Made by a program: the position numbers and the translations under genes. 46,671 bases of DNA from a phage. The notes beneath the pieces are model-generated. The model made no database searches. It was not told where the DNA came from and saw nothing but the letters and a program-made list of their open reading frames with translations. The stretch is taken from NCBI GenBank assembly GCA_030877765.1, contig GCA_030877765.1_4853.1; one strand, 5' to 3'. Shown one piece after another: positions 4,908 through 45,587 of the stretch (position 1 is its first letter; each line of letters starts with the position of its first letter).

Positions 4908-6812
4908 TTAAAATTCTTTTCGGTGGATTATGTCGCGACCTTTATCATTAATACGATGCGTGATGCGTTTTGGCGCTTTAATCAACCCCGCATACATCAT
5001 GAACTGCTTGGCGTTCTGGTATTTCAATATTTTCCCAGCCATTGACTTATCATCAAGGTGTGGGAATACAGCCTTTGCCTTGAACATGTTTTTCATGTGA
5101 GTTGCGCCGCCATAAGGGTAGAAAACTTCATTAGCCCAGCCTTCTTTGCCATCACAACGGTTAATCCAGTAGCGATATAAAATCCCCTCTCCGTCCTTCG
5201 TTAGTTGAACCTTGAAATCCATAACATCAGCCCACTCGTTATCTGTATAAGCACGCTCATTCAGTGCCGAATTAGGGTCGCGCAACACGTGATCGCAATG
5301 TCTGCAATAGCGCGCAGTGGGGTCGTTTTTAGTGCCGCAACCATCATCAAAAATCCGGATTCCGTGCTTATCAAAACCGCAACGGATGTAACTGAAAAAT
5401 TCTTCGCAGCGACCATCTGGAGATAGCGGGTCTTTCCCTATGCATCGACGCGCATATGGGCTGTTCATTGTTCCACATGTATGACACGGAACTTGTTCGC
5501 CACTGCGTTTTGAACGTTGCGCTTCAGCCTCTTCCAGAATCGGGTCTTCATACAGCTGACCAAGCTCAAACATCGTGCCAGAGAAATCAAGAACCAGATG
5601 GTCTTCTTTATGATACCCGGCATCAATTTGCTCTTTCTTCAGTAGGCGCATTCCGCGACCAAGAAGCTGGACAAGGAGAGTTAGCGACATTATTTTTCGC
5701 AATATGCAGCTCGTATCCCATAACGGTATATTTACGCCAGTGGTAAGGGCGGCTATCTGGAATGTGAATTTTTTACGCCCGGTGTATGCATCTTTTAGAG
5801 CCTTCCTTCTGGCTTTTGACCCCATATCTTCTGTAACTATTGAATAACTTCCTTCGGGTAGGTATTTTGCCGCCTCCTGACAATGTTTTTTACCAGCACA
5901 TGTAATCAGTACGCCGTTTCTGTTTTTAGTCAACTCCATAACCTTGAGCATGATTTTCTGCGTCAACGTACCTTGCTCAAGAATTTCTTTCTGCATCTGC
6001 TTGAGCTGCTCGGCGGTAAAGTCCTGAGTACCATCAACATCTGAACCATGAAAATCCGAAAGGTCATAATGCAGACTATCAACATCATGAAGACCAAAAA
6101 TTGTTGGAACAAGAAAACCGTTTTCAACCATGTACTTGGTGTCTATGTTGATAATCTCTTTCTTCCAGAAAGCGCCTTTTATTGATGTAGTTCCGCGAAA
6201 CGGTGAGCCTGTATAACCTATTATTCTCAACTCATGGCCATGCTTATCTTTACACCTTTTCATTAGCTCATTAATTATCACTGCATACTGCGTATCACCA
6301 TTATTAACAACATCAATGTCATTAACCATATGATTTTCATCGATCAGCAGGAATCTTGGGCAAAAGTCAGAGAGCGCACCTTTTGCAATAACATTCCCAT
6401 GCTCATCTTTTTTATCAAACAAAGCATTTACAACAGTACCCTCAGAACCACAGATTATTGGGTACGTAGAACTTTTCCTACCCAACGAAGCACTGAATAG
6501 CGAGTTTCTAACACCAAGCAACCATAGCTCTTCCGCATCTTGCTCCACTATTTCGCCCTGTCTTGATAAAATCATCCCTGAATAGCCCATCTCCTGAAAA
6601 CGCTTTGCTATCATGGCAATCATCAGTGACTTTCCGCTACCGACACTTGCTGTTACATAGCTTGGGCCAACATAATGACGAATCACATCGCCAGTTAACT
6701 TATATATCAACCACTGATAGGGTCTTGGCTCGATATCACCAGTATCCAGATAAGATTTCAGCAGATTAATATCAATCTCTGAAATCATTTTGTCGATTTT
6801 ATGCATTACCAA
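4908..6812 (-). CDS. SF2 DEAD/DExH-box DNA helicase with C-terminal Cys-rich zinc-finger region
   Basis: Walker A ASVGSGKSLM, DExH box LLIDENHMV, helicase C-domain motifs, C-terminal CHTCG...CRHCDH clusters. Confidence 0.85.
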   Translation of the reverse strand: MVMHKIDKMISEIDINLLKSYLDTGDIEPRPYQWLIYKLTGDVIRHYVGPSYVTASVGSGKSLMIAMIAKRFQEMGYSGMILSRQGEIVEQDAEELWLLGVRNSLFSASLGRKSSTYPIICGSEGTVVNALFDKKDEHGNVIAKGALSDFCPRFLLIDENHMVNDIDVVNNGDTQYAVIINELMKRCKDKHGHELRIIGYTGSPFRGTTSIKGAFWKKEIINIDTKYMVENGFLVPTIFGLHDVDSLHYDLSDFHGSDVDGTQDFTAEQLKQMQKEILEQGTLTQKIMLKVMELTKNRNGVLITCAGKKHCQEAAKYLPEGSYSIVTEDMGSKARRKALKDAYTGRKKFTFQIAALTTGVNIPLWDTSCILRKIMSLTLLVQLLGRGMRLLKKEQIDAGYHKEDHLVLDFSGTMFELGQLYEDPILEEAEAQRSKRSGEQVPCHTCGTMNSPYARRCIGKDPLSPDGRCEEFFSYIRCGFDKHGIRIFDDGCGTKNDPTARYCRHCDHVLRDPNSALNERAYTDNEWADVMDFKVQLTKDGEGILYRYWINRCDGKEGWANEVFYPYGGATHMKNMFKAKAVFPHLDDKSMAGKILKYQNAKQFMMYAGLIKAPKRITHRINDKGRDIIHRKEF

Positions 6813-8698: not shown

Positions 8699-8890
8699 TC
8701 ACTTAATCATCAATTTTGAAATGTCAACATAACCAACAGAAAATCTGTGCCAGTAATCATCAAGTACGTGGTAATTAGATCGAATCCATACTTTGTTAAT
8801 CCCAGACCAGAAAAACCACGTCGAATAACCATACGGTCTGAAATTCCATGAGCCTTCTGAGCGGCAAAGTTCGCCTGATATTGTTATCAT
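8699..8890 (-). CDS. Hypothetical protein (63 aa)
   Basis: Short ORF in operon orientation, ATGA overlap with the upstream gene. Confidence 0.3.
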   Translation of the reverse strand: MITISGELCRSEGSWNFRPYGYSTWFFWSGINKVWIRSNYHVLDDYWHRFSVGYVDISKLMIK

Positions 8891-10443
8891 TTCAACCTCG
8901 GATTTATGTGAACAGTGTTTCCGATAAATACGCAGTAACCATCCTCTTCAAGTGATGGCAATACACTTGATCTGAGTCGGTCATAAATTTTAGGTATCCC
9001 TTTGAATGGTCGCACGTTTTTAAGTGAATCATAAAGCCACTTCACCGTTACGCTATTTTTCCCTTTCTGAGCGGCGGAGCGTAGTTTTTCGGCAACAACA
9101 TCAAACTCAGATCGTTCACCAGCATACCCATTTGATTCAACAGCATCAGTGAACGTTTTTGTCAGTGCGTCATAAACACTGATGGCGCGACTAATTTCAT
9201 TTTCACCGATAATCTTTGAACGCTTTCCTCCATCGCACCAGTTTTCAGCAGCGTGAAATATTGCTGCCAGACGTATTATTTGCTTATCAGCTTTACCCAT
9301 CGCGCCACGAAGAAGAACGTGGTCCCACTTACCGCCGGGAAGGAAGTTTTTCTCCCACTGATTTCGTAACAGGCCGATCATTCTTGCTGAGTCATTGTGA
9401 AGCGTCAGTTTTGTTTTTTCTGCTGACACAACATTATGTATAAATCTTGCATATTCCGACCTCAAGCTGTCTGGCATTGGCTTGCTTACAGGGCAATCAT
9501 TAACCATGTCCCAGTGTTCGCGATAGCCAAGCATTGATTGCTCTCGCAACATCAGGAAACGTTCAGAAAGACCGTTCCCCCTGTCGCCAGCGGCAAGAAT
9601 GGCATCAATACTTTCATCCTGCGCAATCACACTTATGTTTCCAAGCACGTAACCAGATGAAACGCCACGACCAACACGAGCAGAGCCAATGAATCCGCCA
9701 TCCCATCCCTTCAGGATGACTTCGGCGTTTGCCTTTCCACCTTCCTTTCCGTAAGAGAGGCCAAGACATGTGTTAAGAACGCTTGCCTCGTCACTTATCA
9801 GATTAAAAAAGCCACCTTCATGGATTGCCTGATGCTGAACAGCCTCCGGCGTTGCGTCAGTAAGTGGGTATGTAATCGTATAAAGCTCTTCCAGCTTCTC
9901 CTTTTCCCGAGCAATATCGTCGCCGATTAGTGCCTTTGCATTCTGATTGCTGGCCTCTTTATATGCCTTCATCAATTCTTCAATGCGAAGATTTATTTTT
10001 ATGATCTGCTTTTCCATCTTTTTGGAAAGGTTGTCATATTCAATCTTCACCGGATTCATGTGCATTGAGTTGATAGCGGTTTTCCCTGCTGATGGAGGCT
10101 GAGAAGTAACCACGTAAAGAGAAACTGGAAGCTCTGAATGGTAATACTCAACGCTAAAGTTTCTCGTCATTGCGCTGGCGACGCAACCAAGTAAATGCAT
10201 GAACGATGTATTTATTGGGAACTGAACTGCGCGAGCTGCAGCGATTGCATAACGAGACAGCAAATCAGTCCTGTGCTCACTGGTCAGTTCTGTTTCTGAA
10301 TACGTTACATCACGCTCCTTACCTTCCTTGATGTCCAGCCACATATTTGAGCTTGGTATCATGCCATAATGGAAGGCAACGCGAGCCGGAGATACTTTCA
10401 ATTCCCTTGCTTCGTTGAAGATGTCTTGAGCTGTGATCATCAT
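8887..10443 (-). CDS. Large replication-associated protein with P-loop (possibly DUF3987-like primase/helicase-associated)
   Basis: 518 aa, first large gene of the leftward operon next to the iteron region; P-loop-like SQPPSAGKT. Family assignment is uncertain. Confidence 0.55.
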   Translation of the reverse strand: MMITAQDIFNEARELKVSPARVAFHYGMIPSSNMWLDIKEGKERDVTYSETELTSEHRTDLLSRYAIAAARAVQFPINTSFMHLLGCVASAMTRNFSVEYYHSELPVSLYVVTSQPPSAGKTAINSMHMNPVKIEYDNLSKKMEKQIIKINLRIEELMKAYKEASNQNAKALIGDDIAREKEKLEELYTITYPLTDATPEAVQHQAIHEGGFFNLISDEASVLNTCLGLSYGKEGGKANAEVILKGWDGGFIGSARVGRGVSSGYVLGNISVIAQDESIDAILAAGDRGNGLSERFLMLREQSMLGYREHWDMVNDCPVSKPMPDSLRSEYARFIHNVVSAEKTKLTLHNDSARMIGLLRNQWEKNFLPGGKWDHVLLRGAMGKADKQIIRLAAIFHAAENWCDGGKRSKIIGENEISRAISVYDALTKTFTDAVESNGYAGERSEFDVVAEKLRSAAQKGKNSVTVKWLYDSLKNVRPFKGIPKIYDRLRSSVLPSLEEDGYCVFIGNTVHINPRLK

Positions 10444-14019: not shown

Positions 14020-14532
14020 ATGCGACCCTTAAAAGAAGAAAAACTCACGCAAGACAGGCTGAAAGAGTTGCTGCATTATAACCATGATACTGGTATTTTC
14101 ACATGGGTTCAGCGCGCCTCAAAAAGCGTAAGAGTTGGTAATTCAGCTGGCAGTAAGAATAAGTCAGGCTATATAGATATACGCATCGATAAGTCTTTAC
14201 ACAAAGCTCATCGGCTTGCGTGGCTTTACATTTATGGTGTGTGGCCCAATGGGAAAATAGATCACATCAATAACGTGAAGACAGATAACAGAATCTGCAA
14301 CCTGAGAGAAGCAAGCAATAATGAAAACGGATGGAATGCTGGTAAACCATCGACAAATACGTCAGGAGTAAAAGGTGTGAGTTGGGATGCAGAGAAAAAT
14401 AAATGGAAGGCGCATTGCAGGGTTTTTGGGAAAAAATATACAGTAGGTAGGTTTTCATCAAAAGAATATGCTGAGAGAGCCGTGGCGGAGTTCAGAGAGA
14501 AACATCACGGGGAGTTTTTTAATCATGGCTAG
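14020..14532 (+). CDS. HNH-AP2 homing endonuclease (paralog 2 of 4), between terS and terL
   Basis: AHRLAWLYIYGVWPNGKIDHINNVKTDNRICNLR followed by NTSGVKGVSWDAEKNKWKAHCRVFGKKYTVGRF. Confidence 0.85.
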   Translation: MRPLKEEKLTQDRLKELLHYNHDTGIFTWVQRASKSVRVGNSAGSKNKSGYIDIRIDKSLHKAHRLAWLYIYGVWPNGKIDHINNVKTDNRICNLREASNNENGWNAGKPSTNTSGVKGVSWDAEKNKWKAHCRVFGKKYTVGRFSSKEYAERAVAEFREKHHGEFFNHG

Positions 14533-15949
14533 AAAAAGACTCTCAAGTGTGGCAATCGAAAAACTTGAACAGGCGGTTGGAAACTCAACTTCAAAGCCTG
14601 AGTCTGCTGTATTTGGCATTGTTAACAAACTGCTTGCCGATGGTACGCCTAATGTTATAAAGCGCCTAAAAATGACATCAACAGGCGTATCTGAAACAAA
14701 CGAAGAACCAACAATACTCATTCCCGAGAGAATGGAATTACTGCTTTATCCTCGCCGTTTCAAAGTGTTCTATGGAGGTAGGGGCAGCGGAAAGACGGCT
14801 AACGTTGTTTCTTACCTTATAGAAAAGGCAAGATTTCGCAACAGCCGCGTCGGATGCTTTCGTGAGATACAGAACTCAATCAAAGAATCAAGCTATGCCG
14901 AACTGGTTGATGAGATAAACAGGAAAGGACACACTCAGGAATATCGTTGCGTGGATGGTGAAATAACCCACCATTCAACGAGGTCAAAGTTTGTTTTCCG
15001 TGGTTTGTGGCGAAATATAACCGCCATTAAGGGTATGGCTGGCCTTACAGATGTATTCTGTGAAGAATCAGAAAATATCAGCCAGGTTTCATGGGATACG
15101 CTAATCCCAACAGTCCGCGCCGCTGGCTCTGAAATTATTATTGTTTTTAACCCAAACAAAGAGACGGACCCGACATGGACTAACTTTGTTGCGCCTTATA
15201 TTGACAAGATGGTTGACGGCATATATCAGGATGATGACATCGTTGTTGTTAATGTTAATTACATCCACAACCCGTGGTTCACGGAAGAACTTAAGCAGCA
15301 CATGAACCAGATGAAAGCTGTGGATTATGATCGCTACCTTTGGGTGTATGAAGGCTTATTCAACAAGCGGTCTGACGAAGCTGTTCTCGGGGGGAAATGG
15401 CAAACACTCGACTTTGAACCATCTCCTGAGTGGGGTGGGCCTTACTACGGCATTGACTTTGGTTTTTCTCAGGATGCAACAGCAGCAACTGAATCATATG
15501 TAGAAGATTTGGGTGATGGACGAAGAAACCTGTATATCTATCGTGACTTTGCAAAGGTTGGCCTTGAGATAACTGACACGCCGGAAGCGATGCGCTCAGC
15601 ATTCCCAAATTCAGAGAAGTACAGATGGTATGGGGATTGCGCAAGACCTGAAACAATAAGCCATATACGACGCTCTGGATTCGATATTCATCCGTGCGCA
15701 AAATGGCCGGGGAGCATTGAGGACGGTATTACGTGGCTGCGTGGGTGTGACAGGATTTACGTGCACTCAAGATGCAGGCACGTCATTGAAGAGATGACAA
15801 TGTACAGCTATAAGGTGGACAAATTAACAGGTAACATACTCCCTGATATAGTTGATAAATACAATCACGCGATTGATAGTTTACGCTATGGACTTGGAGA
15901 TCACATCGTTCAACGCGGTAGCGGGATGCTAATCCGGCGCAGTCGATAA
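14525..15949 (+). CDS. Terminase large subunit
   Basis: Walker A YGGRGSGKT, ATPase and nuclease domain layout; ATG 14525 overlaps the HNH stop. Confidence 0.9.
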   Translation: MARKRLSSVAIEKLEQAVGNSTSKPESAVFGIVNKLLADGTPNVIKRLKMTSTGVSETNEEPTILIPERMELLLYPRRFKVFYGGRGSGKTANVVSYLIEKARFRNSRVGCFREIQNSIKESSYAELVDEINRKGHTQEYRCVDGEITHHSTRSKFVFRGLWRNITAIKGMAGLTDVFCEESENISQVSWDTLIPTVRAAGSEIIIVFNPNKETDPTWTNFVAPYIDKMVDGIYQDDDIVVVNVNYIHNPWFTEELKQHMNQMKAVDYDRYLWVYEGLFNKRSDEAVLGGKWQTLDFEPSPEWGGPYYGIDFGFSQDATAATESYVEDLGDGRRNLYIYRDFAKVGLEITDTPEAMRSAFPNSEKYRWYGDCARPETISHIRRSGFDIHPCAKWPGSIEDGITWLRGCDRIYVHSRCRHVIEEMTMYSYKVDKLTGNILPDIVDKYNHAIDSLRYGLGDHIVQRGSGMLIRRSR

Positions 15950-27208: not shown

Positions 27209-29091
<1,883 letters not shown>

Positions 29092-29102: not shown

Positions 29103-30176
29103 ATGGAAAAGATTATTTTTACCAAAGACTTGGTAGCCAACTCCGCAGTGGTGGCTGACCAGTGGAAACATCTCACCATCGACCGCAAGGTGTTCTGCAA
29201 TGCAGAAGCTGAACTGGCGAAAACATACGGTGTTAACGCCACCGCGCTGGTAACGAAAGATTACTGGCGCGACGTGGATAACGTCACCACCCGTGTTTTC
29301 CGCAACGAAGCTGGCCAGGACATGATGGCTGACCTGATGGGTATCGCGGCAAACATTAACATTGGTAAGACTGTGGCAATCAGCCGCATTGCTTCCGATG
29401 CTGGCAAGGTAGTCCGCACTCTGTCTGGTCAGGAGCCGGAAGACTTGGATAAAACTCGCTACGATTACACTGGCGACGTGATTCCAATCTTCAAAACTGG
29501 CTACAGCCGCGAATGGCGCGAACTGCTGGGTATGCAGTCTGAAGGTTTTGACCCCCTGCTGGACGATCAGGCTAACGTCACCTTTAACCTACGTTCCGAC
29601 ATGGCGCAGTATCTGCTGACCGGCGACCAGACTCTGAACGTGAACGGCGTTTACACTGGCTACGGTATCACCAACCACCCGAACACCATTCAGGTCAACC
29701 TGAACATTCACGATGGCGGCCTGAATATCGACCTGCAAACCGCAACGCCAGATGAAATCGTGAAATTCTTCAATCAGGATTTCCAGGCTATTCTGGATGC
29801 GCAGAACGTATTTGAGCAGGTGACTCTGTGGGTTTCCCCGGCAGTGCGTCGCAGTTTCATGCGTCCGTATTCTAATGCGGCTGGCTTCAAAGGCGGCACG
29901 GTTGAGCAGTACATCACGCAGTTCGGTAATGGTCGCATTGGTAAGATTGGCACCAACTTCCTGCTGACTGGCAACCATTTCGTTGGTTACGTTCGCAATG
30001 ACATGTACATCCGTCCGCGTGTTGCTCAGCCTGTCTCCACCTATGCGGCAGCTCGCACCAACCCGCACGATAACTTTAACTTCCTCGTATGGTCTGCTTT
30101 CGGTCTGCAGATTCGCAAGGATGCCGCTGGAAAAAGCCGCGTCTTTAATGGCTATGGTAGCCAGGAAGCTAAATAA
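29103..30176 (+). CDS. Major capsid protein
   Basis: 357 aa, strong RBS, followed by a strong terminator; lambda E-like position and size. Confidence 0.65.
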   Translation: MEKIIFTKDLVANSAVVADQWKHLTIDRKVFCNAEAELAKTYGVNATALVTKDYWRDVDNVTTRVFRNEAGQDMMADLMGIAANINIGKTVAISRIASDAGKVVRTLSGQEPEDLDKTRYDYTGDVIPIFKTGYSREWRELLGMQSEGFDPLLDDQANVTFNLRSDMAQYLLTGDQTLNVNGVYTGYGITNHPNTIQVNLNIHDGGLNIDLQTATPDEIVKFFNQDFQAILDAQNVFEQVTLWVSPAVRRSFMRPYSNAAGFKGGTVEQYITQFGNGRIGKIGTNFLLTGNHFVGYVRNDMYIRPRVAQPVSTYAAARTNPHDNFNFLVWSAFGLQIRKDAAGKSRVFNGYGSQEAK

Positions 30177-35824: not shown

Positions 35825-36222
35825 TGCCAGCGAAATTAAGAGGCGTCCGACAGGCCGTAGAGAGAACATCGCAGATTGTGGATGAGATAATCGCCACGAA
35901 AGCTGTGCGTGCAATTAAGTCAGCGACATACATCATCCGCACCGAATCAGCCACGCTAACGCCAATTGATACATCAACGCTAATTAACAGTCAGTTTGAT
36001 ACCGTGGAAGTTAGCGGAACGCGAATCACTGGCAAGGTTGGCTACTCTGCAAAATATGCACTGTACGTCCACAATGCCAGCGGTAAACTTGCAGGGAAAC
36101 CGCGCAGCAACGGCAACGGCACGTATTGGTCGCCGGGTGGTGAACCACAATTCCTGACCAAAGCAGCGCAACGCACAAAAGACCTTGTTGATAGCGTGAT
36201 TAAGAAGGAGATGACACTCTAA
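35824..36222 (+). CDS. Putative tail completion protein
   Basis: 132 aa; position and size. Confidence 0.45.
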   Translation: MPAKLRGVRQAVERTSQIVDEIIATKAVRAIKSATYIIRTESATLTPIDTSTLINSQFDTVEVSGTRITGKVGYSAKYALYVHNASGKLAGKPRSNGNGTYWSPGGEPQFLTKAAQRTKDLVDSVIKKEMTL

Positions 36223-36596
36223 TGAATATGCTTGAACTGGTTGATGCATATCTTCAGGATGCAGGATTGTACGATGGCTGGACTTCGCAGCTGCAGTTCT
36301 GGAATGACACCGGAGATGGAAGTGAGCAATTTATTGTTCTGCAATCCAACGGTGGCACTCAGGTTATGGATGGCCTCGGCGGTGACTTCTATTTTTCGCT
36401 GTATGTTGTTGGCAAACAAGGCCAATACAATGTTGCTGATGTTGATTCGAAGGCCAATGAGATTATCGAATACATCAAAACACACCCGATTGATTCATGC
36501 GTTAACTACATCCAGTTGCAAGCGCCACTTGGCAGGGCAATGCTGACGGAAGAAAAAAGACCAGTGCATGAACTGCTATTACGTGTTGTGAAATAA
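36222..36596 (+). CDS. Putative tail terminator protein
   Basis: 124 aa; immediately before the major tail region. Confidence 0.45.
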   Translation: MNMLELVDAYLQDAGLYDGWTSQLQFWNDTGDGSEQFIVLQSNGGTQVMDGLGGDFYFSLYVVGKQGQYNVADVDSKANEIIEYIKTHPIDSCVNYIQLQAPLGRAMLTEEKRPVHELLLRVVK

Positions 36597-36597
36597 A

Positions 36598-36624
36598 TAA
36601 AGCCGCATGAAGCGGCTTTTAATT
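36598..36624. terminator. Bidirectional terminator
   Basis: Stem agccgc/gcggct with 5-nt loop; T-runs on both strands. Confidence 0.75.
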
Positions 36625-36701
36625 TGGTGGACACGGACGGATTTGAACCTTCAATCAGCCGATTATTAGTCGGTTGCTTTAACCAATTAAGCTACGCGTC
36701 C
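36625..36701 (-). tRNA. tRNA-like gene (77 nt including encoded CCA); apparent anticodon AAU
   Basis: Minus strand folds by eye: 7-bp acceptor stem with one G-U, D-arm GCTT/AAGC, anticodon stem-loop with loop CTAATAA, T-loop GGTTCAAATCC, discriminator A plus CCA. One mismatch each in anticodon and T stems. Confidence 0.55.
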
Positions 36702-37199
36702 ATAAGTGCTGGTTTAAGCATTGCCAGCGTGCTTTCTTAACATCCAGCCCCGTAACCCATACATACCCCTACATATGATTGCGATAATGCTGGATATTAA
36801 GTGTTGTGGTGGCCGGTGCTGATCTCCGGCATAAGGCGCTTATTCGGCGGCGTCGAGCTTGCTTATTCGCTTGAGCCATCCTCGTGAGTCAGCCACGTCC
36901 CACTGCGCATCAGCCTGCGCATTCACCACAACGGAAAGAGCACTGATGCGCTCACTTGGGACTCCTTAGCCATAACCCACGGGCTTCTGGTACACCAATG
37001 CTCTTACCTGTTGTGTTCCCTGACTTATTAATCACACCTCAGGGACGCAGTGCGCCGAATTTGTTTACAAGGAATCGGAAGACCTTGCTGACTTACAGGC
37101 TATTACGCCGCCATCAGAACAACATCATCGTTTGCATTTATCTTTGTGGTCAGTTTCTAAAAAGTCCGCAAAGTCGCTCACGAAAACTATCTGAAATAC

Positions 37200-37243
37200 A
37201 ATCTACACCACAAAATAATCGCTGTCAACACCTGTGATATAAT
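37200..37243. promoter_or_regulatory. Divergent promoter pair: leftward into the non-coding locus, rightward for the major tail gene
   Basis: Minus strand TTGACA (37228-37223), 17 bp, TAGATT (37205-37200); plus strand extended -10 TGaTATAAT (37235-37243). Confidence 0.6.
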
Positions 37244-37279: not shown

Positions 37280-37999
37280 ATGGCTATTTGTGCAAATGAT
37301 AAAGGCGTTCTGGTCGGTCGCATGACCCGACTGTTCCTTGCTGAAGGGTGCGGCGACGCAGTTCCGGATGCAGGCGACTGGAAGTATTTAGGCTCAACCA
37401 CCAGTAAAGGCGTTGACTACTCGCCGCAGACCACTACGTCGGAAGCGGATACCGCTGGCGGCTTTGTTTCTACTCTCGTTACCAGCTCTGATATGACCAT
37501 CAGTGCAGAGGTAGAAATCCGCAAGAATGACCCGAGCGATGAGTTTGGCTTCCATCGTCTTGTTGAGATTTACACCACTGAACTGAAGGCTCGCCGCCAG
37601 CCTTCCTTGTGGGTGCGTCAGGTGACTGGTGCAACTATCGTTACCGCGTATTGCAACATCACCAGCATCAGCTACGAAGGTGGCACGAACGATATCGTTA
37701 CTGGTAGCCTTGAGTTTAAGGTTTACGATTCTGACAGCGTTACCGTAGAAAGCCTTGAACCTCTGGCATTCACTACCGACCTGCAATCAACTGGCACGGC
37801 CGGAATCCCGTTAACCGTTGCTGTTGAAGGTGGCGTTGATCCTTACACTTATGTATGGCGCAAAGATGGCGCAGTTGTTGATGGTGAGTCTGGCGCATCT
37901 CTGGCAAGCCCTACCGCTGGCGTGCATACCGTCACGGTAACTGATTCATCTACCGACCCGGAAATTATCATCAGCACGGCGTGCACGGTATCCCGATAA
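37280..37999 (+). CDS. Major tail protein with C-terminal Ig-like domain
   Basis: 239 aa, GGAG RBS; Thr/Val-rich Ig-like C-terminus as in lambda V; followed by a strong terminator. Confidence 0.7.
   Translation: MAICANDKGVLVGRMTRLFLAEGCGDAVPDAGDWKYLGSTTSKGVDYSPQTTTSEADTAGGFVSTLVTSSDMTISAEVEIRKNDPSDEFGFHRLVEIYTTELKARRQPSLWVRQVTGATIVTAYCNITSISYEGGTNDIVTGSLEFKVYDSDSVTVESLEPLAFTTDLQSTGTAGIPLTVAVEGGVDPYTYVWRKDGAVVDGESGASLASPTAGVHTVTVTDSSTDPEIIISTACTVSR

Positions 38000-41783: not shown

Positions 41784-45587
<3,804 letters not shown>

Follow-up and report, generated by a model that had tools for sequence, protein, structure and literature searches.

Introduction

C34 is the main determinant for MetRS and the target base of TilS, and lysidine on A34 is chemically impossible. 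To our knowledge, bacteria have almost no A34 anticodons that are unmodified or non-arginine, and why this is so is an open question. In tRNA-Ile2 of Escherichia coli (ileX/ileY), TilS converts C34 to lysidine, and in the TilS-independent tRNA-Ile(UAU) of Mycoplasma mobile and of Bacillus subtilis tilS-deletion suppressors, a wobble substitution in the Ile/Met box removes the need for lysidine. The acceptor-stem determinants of E. coli TilS are C4:G69 and C5:G68, the latter being dominant (Ikeuchi 2005, cited in PMC12514573). To address the avoidance of A34, all ANN tRNAs have been engineered in E. coli (bioRxiv 10.64898/2026.05.15.725136).

The DNA analysed here, a stretch of 46,671 nucleotides that is referred to as the window, belongs to a Skatevirus-like siphophage, one of a group of E. 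coli and Salmonella phages, and carries a tRNA gene with the anticodon AAU. The existence of the gene is already known through GenBank annotation, as the records of related phages list it as either tRNA-Ile or tRNA-Met. Full-text searches of the literature found nothing on the anticodon of this phage tRNA, on which the Skate announcement and the seszw paper are silent. Neither did they find any discussion of AAU as one of three wobble alleles (C/A/U) of a phage tRNA of the Ile2 type, of the missing TilS determinant in the tRNA body or of the recurrence of A34 Ile tRNAs in coliphages.

The tRNA gene and its genomic setting

The sole tRNA called by ARAGORN in the 46.7-kb window is a tRNA-Ile with the anticodon aat at positions 36625-36701 of the minus strand. 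Rfam model RF00005 gave a full-length match at 36628-36701 on the same strand, scoring 62.1 bits where the gathering score is 29 (E = 3.4e-11 over the whole window). Thus, the tRNA-like gene proposed in the initial annotation, for which an ARAGORN run on the minus strand had been suggested as a check, is confirmed and is a genuine transfer-RNA gene. The predicted RNA, GGACGCGUAGCUUAAUUGGUUAAAGCAACCGACUAAUAAUCGGCUGAUUGAAGGUUCAAAUCCGUCCGUGUCCACCA, is 77 nt long with its encoded CCA, and its AAU anticodon is formed by A34 at 36667, A35 at 36666 and U36 at 36665.

The tRNA has the make-up of a canonical elongator tRNA, with stems of 7, 4, 5 and 5 bp, U8, A14, G18G19 and U33. The acceptor stem of 7 bp includes a G5.U68 wobble pair, the D arm is closed by GCUU/AAGC and has GG in its loop, the T loop is UUCAAAU and the 7-nt anticodon loop is CUAAUAA. 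All the stem and loop details described earlier from the sequence (acceptor stem, D arm, T loop, CCA and a CTAATAA loop with A34) were correct, and we agree that A34 is rare. The single mismatches reported for the anticodon and T stems were also seen, as A27.C43 and A51.G63, respectively; on the sequences compared, they are common to all alleles and are no signs of decay. Across 12 distinct orthologues, 89.7% of the cells in the cloverleaf stems were paired, as opposed to at most 45% when the partners were slid. Among these orthologues, pair 2:71 underwent a compensatory change from G:C to C:G, and pair 5:68 was found as G.U, G-C or A-U. It should be noted that the cloverleaf is absent from the single-sequence minimum-free-energy fold of the tRNA (z = -1.46), and this fold was set aside as evidence for the cloverleaf.

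The 601 nt around the tRNA are 99.7-99.8% identical to those of Escherichia phages ZCEC08, HC6, 6947 and HC8A and 92-94% identical to those of Bas80, Skate, seszw, STGO-35-1 and swi2. Relative to the structural genes, the tRNA gene is antisense; it is flanked by a 124-aa ORF (36222-36596, plus strand) and the major tail protein gene (37280-37999, plus strand), and its neighbors are tail and head-completion genes and small ORFs of unknown function. Blastn against 5,426 E. coli genomes returned no match to the tRNA, and an exact 39-mer of it had no match in 185,579 species genomes. A copied host tRNA and an attP remnant were therefore ruled out as its source.

Ancestry of the AAU gene

The orthologues have the same tRNA body and differ at position 34, where C, A or U is found. 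Of the 120 cellular tRNAs that share the arm CCGACU-N-AUAAUCGG, 117 have the anticodon CAU together with a GGGCCC acceptor stem and three have GAU, while all the 40 tRNAs with the same arm from other viral families have C34. Alignment to verified E. coli sequences showed C4:G69, C29:G41, U12:A23 and A73 in both the phage tRNA and tRNA-Ile2, whereas E. coli tRNA-Met instead has U4:A69, A5:U68 and U29:A41. The window tRNA thus differs from elongator tRNA-Met by A34, C4:G69, G5.U68 and C29:G41. It has the anticodon arm of tRNA-Ile2 (C29:G41, G30:C40, A31:U39 and the loop CU-N-AUAA), with A34 in place of the C34 that is found in about two thirds of the orthologous lineages. Given the Ile2-type arm and other features and the CAU orthologues, the AAU gene is probably a C34A derivative of a tRNA-Ile2-type phage gene that read AUA. 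By its base 34 it is, as judged from these comparisons, a derivative of the tRNA-Ile2 family and not a member of it.

The antisense strand (36627-36701, plus) matched the Rfam Plastid-ycf2 5'UTR model at 38.7 bits, with a gathering score of 65.7. As the consensus of this model is the antisense of plastid trnI-CAU, the match is explained by the Ile2-like sequence of the tRNA and does not mark a genuine element.

Of the TilS determinants in the acceptor stem, the phage tRNA has C4:G69, but pair 5:68 is G.U and not C:G. This pair is A-U in the metagenome contigs L013/L023 and G-C in three of the C alleles.

The CAU alleles of Bas80, STGO-35-1, swi2, KFS-SE2 and Akira are labeled as tRNA-Met in GenBank. 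These labels appear to follow simply from the CAU anticodon and are probably wrong, because these alleles have C4:G69, C29:G41 and an anticodon arm like those of tRNA-Ile2.

Polymorphism at the wobble position

By lineage, position 34 is C in about 20 cases, A in about seven or eight (metagenome contigs included), U in four and never G. C34 is found in Bas80, STGO-35-1, swi2, KFS-SE2, Akira and most metagenome contigs; A34 in the window group, Skate, seszw, gmqsjt-1 and the metagenome contigs L013/L023, L020 and L025; and U34 in BUCT618 and contigs L017, L024 and L155. The remainder of the anticodon loop is invariant in all orthologues, and among the sampled families with this arm, only the Skate-like tRNA family varies at position 34. 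The A allele, with a frequency of about one third, was found on several continents, in phages of E. coli and Salmonella and in uncultured contigs.

The A alleles occur on at least five upstream flank haplotypes, each of which has a C-allele twin, and one haplotype is found with C, A and U. They are also scattered in a neighbor-joining tree of the downstream 650 nt. The tracts that are identical between A and C alleles are just 150-230 nt long and coincide with an invariant cassette of about 230 bp, so independent C-to-A events are unprovable from the scatter. It could result from recurrent mutation or, equally, from recombination within the cassette.

The only natural changes in the bodies of the A alleles are G5A, which turns G.U into A-U (L013/L023), and G63U, which turns A.G into A-U (L025), although divergence among the orthologues is low and the power to detect decay is therefore limited. 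Both changes make Watson-Crick pairs, which only six of the 228 possible single changes would do. In about 65 genome-reduced laboratory derivatives of seszw, the A allele is unchanged; the genome-reduction study never mentions the tRNA, and its retention there is weak evidence. One derivative, seszw_180S (L027, MZ375330.1), acquired U64C, which breaks the A50-U64 pair of the T stem. Collectively, the natural sequences suggest that the A allele is natural and maintained.

The same tRNA cassette was also found in an unrelated phage type, represented by BUCT618 (L028, 38 kb), L017, L024 and L155, where it lies upstream of a DUF1073 gene. In addition to the UAU anticodon, the tRNA of this type has a G2:C71 to C2:G71 swap and the discriminator G73 instead of A73. 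In some other relatives, the CAU tRNA is directly adjoined by a gene for tRNA-Arg(UCU), which reads AGA (KFS-SE2, L029 1584-1659; L009 4888-4960; Klebsiella phage VLCpiS13b, L198 315-391), and in KFS-SE2 this gene is followed by one for an HNH endonuclease.

A34 tRNA-Ile in Gamaleyavirus

A34 was found in all seven sampled copies of a tRNA-Ile from coliphages of the unrelated genus Gamaleyavirus (Schitoviridae), which included PhAPEC5, nithesis, PD38 and ECBP1 as well as IMG/VR contigs. The body of this tRNA is different (~80% identity), while its 17-nt anticodon arm is identical to that of the window tRNA. Its acceptor stem has undergone compensatory changes from U2-A71 to C2-G71 and from G5.U68 to A5-U68. 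The presence of A34 in every sampled copy along with these changes suggests that an A34 Ile tRNA is maintained in at least one coliphage lineage. A tRNA-Ile-AAT was also reported for four UE phages (PMC11927229).

In nithesis (L200 213-288) and other Gamaleyavirus phages, a tRNA-like gene with an abnormal loop lies beside the A34 tRNA-Ile; ARAGORN designated it tRNA-??? with a 2-base anticodon. Another A34 anticodon, that of tRNA-Cys-ACA, was reported in Gamaleyavirus phages (PMC11927229).

Flanking elements

An intrinsic-terminator-like hairpin, AAAGCCGC-UUCAU-GCGGCUUU followed by a U-rich tail, was found by a terminator scan at 36599-36619 on the minus strand and begins 5 nt past the CCA. 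The hairpin is palindromic and could also serve as the terminator of the convergent plus-strand gene, whose stop is at 36596.

Directly upstream of the tRNA is a block of about 105 nt (36702-36806, minus strand) that alignments showed to be nearly invariant across all relatives and that accompanies the tRNA into the unrelated BUCT618-type phages. It is predicted to fold into a hairpin with a 13-bp stem (CUUAAUAUCCAGC / GCUGGAUGUUAAG; -32.3 kcal/mol, z = -2.8), and it could be a processing site, a (weak) promoter or a protein-binding site. Further upstream, an alignment of 11 loci delimited a variable mosaic leader (36807-37199, minus strand) that extends to a promoter-like site and in which the terminator scan found a terminator-like hairpin at 36938-36953. 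A conserved inverted-repeat pair in the leader (ACACAACAGGTAAGAGCATTG ... CAGTGCTCTTNCCGTTGTGGTGAA) brackets a hypervariable insert of ~20-200 nt (loci L002-L025) that differs even between otherwise close phages. This insert may represent a hotspot of recombination, an RNA switch with a regulatory function or a mobile mini-element.

The promoter-like site is of the sigma-70 type, TTGACA-17 nt-TAGATT, and faces the tRNA (37200-37228, minus strand); the promoter scan found no other such site on the minus strand from the major tail gene to the tRNA. In 22 Skatevirus-like loci, both hexamers recur on the upstream side of the tRNA at a distance of 382-688 nt, even though the intervening DNA varies. 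Nearer to the tRNA, no promoter scored above the threshold of the scan, and by eye just a weak TTAAGA-17-TTAAAC was seen.

Sub-threshold Rfam matches to tmRNA models were noticed at 37054-37212 on the minus strand of the window (tmRNA_permuted, 27 bits; beta_tmRNA, 18 bits) and in Skate (L003 2951-3009; tmRNA model, 10 bits). ARAGORN called no tmRNA in the window and the Rfam scores are far below the gathering scores, so a tmRNA in the leader was rejected and the matches were taken as similarity to a tRNA remnant or as chance similarity. Skate and L018 have a canonical T arm (GGTTCGAWTCC) and NCCA just ahead of the 105-nt block, and the window has a hairpin and ACCA at the same place. These pieces are possibly the remnants of further tRNA genes.

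Codon usage

AUA makes up 10.4 per 1000 codons in the window, which has the A allele, and 12.7 in Bas80, which has the C allele, as estimated from crude ORF calls in one genome of each kind. The corresponding value for E. coli is 4.9 (PMC12514573). Since AUA is used above the E. coli rate and a tRNA-Arg(UCU) gene adjoins in some relatives, a rare-codon (AUA) role is plausible for the ancestral gene. AUU is the commonest Ile codon of the phage. By the crude ORF calls, AUA codons are concentrated in 4908-6806 (minus strand, 17), 8887-10443 (minus, 12), 14468-15949 (plus, 13) and 43098-45587 (plus, 10), and are absent from the large ORFs 27209-28624, 29103-30176 and 37280-37999, the last of which is the major tail gene.

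Discussion

A functional Ile tRNA that is independent of TilS and MetRS and reads mainly AUU is our best explanation for this gene, and we give it about an even chance of being right. Its ancestor would have been a gene of the tRNA-Ile2 type with a CAU anticodon, whose product was modified to lysidine by the host TilS, charged with Ile and used to read AUA; in the window, the wobble C34 would have changed to A. Host RNA polymerase would transcribe the gene from TTGACA/TAGATT, and the tRNA would form the 3' end of a transcript of ~590 nt, from which it would be freed by processing and which would end at the hairpin after the CCA. The change to A34 would abolish recognition by both MetRS and TilS, because C34 is the base that both need. 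Reportedly, the identity set of E. coli IleRS defined by Nureki et al. in 1994 consists of N34 (G or lysidine), A35, U36, t6A37, A38, A73, C4:G69, U12:A23 and C29:G41. Except for position 34, all these identity nucleotides are present in the phage tRNA (A35, U36, A37, A38, A73, C4:G69, U12:A23 and C29:G41), which would be charged with Ile, although probably less efficiently than a tRNA with G34 or lysidine. Yeast IleRS recognizes A34 ~16-fold less than I34 (PMC11685878), and our literature searches found no bacterial IleRS data on A34; given the yeast result, charging of the phage tRNA may be weak.

On the ribosome, the unmodified A34 would pair with AUU in Watson-Crick fashion, read AUC weakly and hardly read AUA. 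When an orthogonal tRNA was given the AAU anticodon in the same loop context, E. coli TadA did not deaminate it, and it decoded AUU at 4.5%, AUC at 0.43% and AUG at 0.27%, with AUA below detection (PMC11066159). Over-expression of an Ile-tRNA(AAU) improved the growth of E. coli in at least two media (bioRxiv 10.64898/2026.05.15.725136). The C34A change would thereby turn a TilS-dependent reader of a rare codon into a modification-independent reader of the commonest Ile codon, and the resulting allele would coexist in nature with those of C34 and U34. Several observations speak against the AUU-reader explanation. The host tRNA-Ile1 already serves AUU, which leaves the benefit uncertain, and the phage uses AUA at about twice the host rate, for which a reader of AUU only would be of no help. 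In addition, about 500 nt and a terminator-like hairpin separate the promoter from the tRNA, and the scatter of the A allele is explicable by cassette recombination and not only by recurrent selection.

It is rather unlikely, in our judgment, that the tRNA gene is dispensable and A34 a point mutation of neutral or mildly crippling effect, and that this allele, whose poorly charged product would contribute little, was kept by drift and spread by recombination. Such an origin would require only a single-base change in an accessory gene that lies antisense in a structural module, and the allele would be a poor IleRS determinant if the yeast findings apply (PMC11685878). As the tracts identical between A and C alleles coincide with the invariant cassette, recombination alone can explain the haplotype scatter. 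Many AUA codons remain in the phages with the A allele, and the laboratory-passaged seszw mutant gained a T-stem-breaking change without losing the tRNA. However, the natural A alleles show no decay elsewhere, with both natural changes repairing mismatches, and the loop varies only at position 34 and never to G. The same base is found in 7/7 Gamaleyavirus copies, flanked by compensatory stem changes, and a frequency of about one third is held across continents and in phages of both E. coli and Salmonella. The unchanged A in the seszw derivatives, from a study that never mentions the tRNA, also points away from a dispensable gene. It is unlikely, too, that A34 becomes inosine in the infected cell, by the host TadA or by an unrecognized factor, in which case a eukaryote-like tRNA-Ile(IAU), well recognized by IleRS, would read AUU, AUC and AUA. 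The C allele (through lysidine), the U allele and the A allele (through inosine) would then be three chemistries for supplying an AUA decoder, with the last two requiring no TilS. Consistent with inosine are the restriction of all three alleles to the AUN box, in which k2C34 and U34 are AUA readers, the 10-13 AUA per 1000 phage codons as compared with 4.9 in E. coli (PMC12514573) and the tRNA-Arg(UCU) for the rare codon AGA that adjoins the tRNA in some relatives. The absence of the C5:G68 determinant of TilS (PMC12514573) would provide a motive to bypass this enzyme, and I34 restores recognition by yeast IleRS (PMC11685878). From tRNA-Phe(AAA) alone, a preprint infers indirectly that the ANN tRNAs of two-fold boxes carry inosine in E. 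coli (bioRxiv 10.64898/2026.05.15.725136). On either side of the anticodon, the loop has C32 U33 and A37 A38, as does the TadA substrate tRNA-Arg2 (C32 U33 A34 C35 G36 A37 A38), from which CUAAUAA differs at positions 35 and 36. E. coli TadA, however, produced no detectable inosine on AAU in the same loop context, and just 3 of 15 tested A34 anticodons yielded inosine, two of them being AAG and AUG (PMC11066159). A phage-encoded deaminase was rejected as a candidate, as the six reading frames of the window contain no H/CAE...PCxxC deaminase motif and the annotation of the related phage Bas80 lists no such enzyme.

The initial annotation had left it open whether the gene encodes a functional phage tRNA, a tRNA mimic or a decoy for tRNA-targeting defenses. 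We favor the first of these, since the tRNA is well-formed and conserved and has promoter-like and terminator-like sites, and found the mimic and the decoy without support. That AAU is one of three wobble alleles of an Ile2-type gene, and that a second coliphage genus has A34 in all sampled copies, was beyond the reach of an annotation made from the letters alone. Variation is confined to position 34 and never reaches positions 35 and 36, and the stem changes preserve pairing, as would be expected of a translating tRNA. That the gene serves as a decoy, mimic or replacement against a host tRNA-targeting defense or toxin, with the wobble change evading or trapping an anticodon nuclease, is highly improbable. 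Polymorphism at one loop base does resemble the signature of an arms race, and tRNAs of T5-like phages with changes in the anticodon loop evade anticodon nucleases. No nuclease directed at tRNA-Ile2 or at Ile anticodons is known to us, however; positions 35-38 and 32-33, the ones usually read by anticodon nucleases, are invariant, and nothing at the locus points to a defense or counter-defense module. The full cloverleaf with CCA and the invariant Ile-box context of the anticodon are likewise not those of a decoy or mimic. A broader proposal, that coliphages repeatedly evolved A34 Ile tRNAs from lysidine-type CAU genes and that A34 becomes inosine or is otherwise AUA-reading in the infected cell, appears quite unlikely to us. 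If it were true, bacterial viruses would possess an IAU decoder of the eukaryotic kind with which to get around TilS, an essential enzyme of the host, and the C/A/U alleles would represent a balanced polymorphism driven by differences among hosts in TilS or TadA activity.

The locus is a natural experiment in phages of E. coli and Salmonella, as a single tRNA body occurs with C, A or U as its wobble base in genomes that are nearly identical otherwise, and in a second genus all the sampled copies have A34. It bears on the charging, modification and ribosomal use of an AAU tRNA in bacteria, on whether phage tRNAs are at a disadvantage when they depend on TilS and on whether switching of the wobble base adapts phages to their hosts. 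Database labeling is also at stake, given that CAU alleles are called tRNA-Met despite their Ile2-like features.

Comparison with known systems

The anticodon stem-loop of the phage tRNA is identical to that of tRNA-Ile2 except for position 34. The two also share C4:G69, U12:A23 and A73, the orthologues in sister phages are CAU and a role in reading a rare codon is plausible. The phage tRNA differs in having A34 for C34, and hence no lysidine, and G5.U68 for C5:G68. Its acceptor stem, D-loop and T stem are unlike those of any E. coli tRNA. Similar to the TilS-independent tRNA-Ile(UAU) of M. mobile and the B. subtilis suppressors, the phage gene has undergone a wobble substitution in the Ile/Met box, and a U34 allele of it exists in BUCT618-type phages. 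Unlike tRNA-Ile(UAU), the unmodified A34 tRNA is not expected to read AUA well (PMC11066159).

Eukaryotic tRNA-Ile(AAU), which is converted to IAU, has the same encoded anticodon, and both tRNAs would read all three Ile codons if the phage tRNA were deaminated. Eukaryotes, however, have the heterodimeric ADAT2/3, which makes I34, and the bodies of their tRNAs are unrelated to that of the phage tRNA. E. coli TadA, in contrast to the eukaryotic enzyme, leaves AAU unmodified (PMC11066159). The rare bacterial A34 tRNAs (Leu-AAG and Thr-AGU in Firmicutes and Mollicutes, and the engineered ANN tRNAs in E. coli) resemble the phage tRNA in that a wobble A is used in bacterial translation. E. coli tolerated the engineered Ile-tRNA(AAU) and even benefited from it (bioRxiv 10.64898/2026.05.15.725136). 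Natural tRNAs of this kind mostly belong to four-fold boxes, whereas the tRNA described here belongs to the 3+1 Ile/Met box, is encoded by a phage and descends from a CAU gene, not from one with GAU.

The Gamaleyavirus tRNA-Ile(AAT) of PhAPEC5, Bp4, ECBP1 and the UE phages has the same arm with A34, the same C4:G69 and a 5:68 pair of either G.U or A-U, and its hosts are also E. coli. It differs in its acceptor stem, D-loop and T arm, mostly lacks an encoded CCA and is located in a small cluster with odd tRNA-like genes. A34 is present in all seven of its copies, whereas in the Skate-like family this position is polymorphic.
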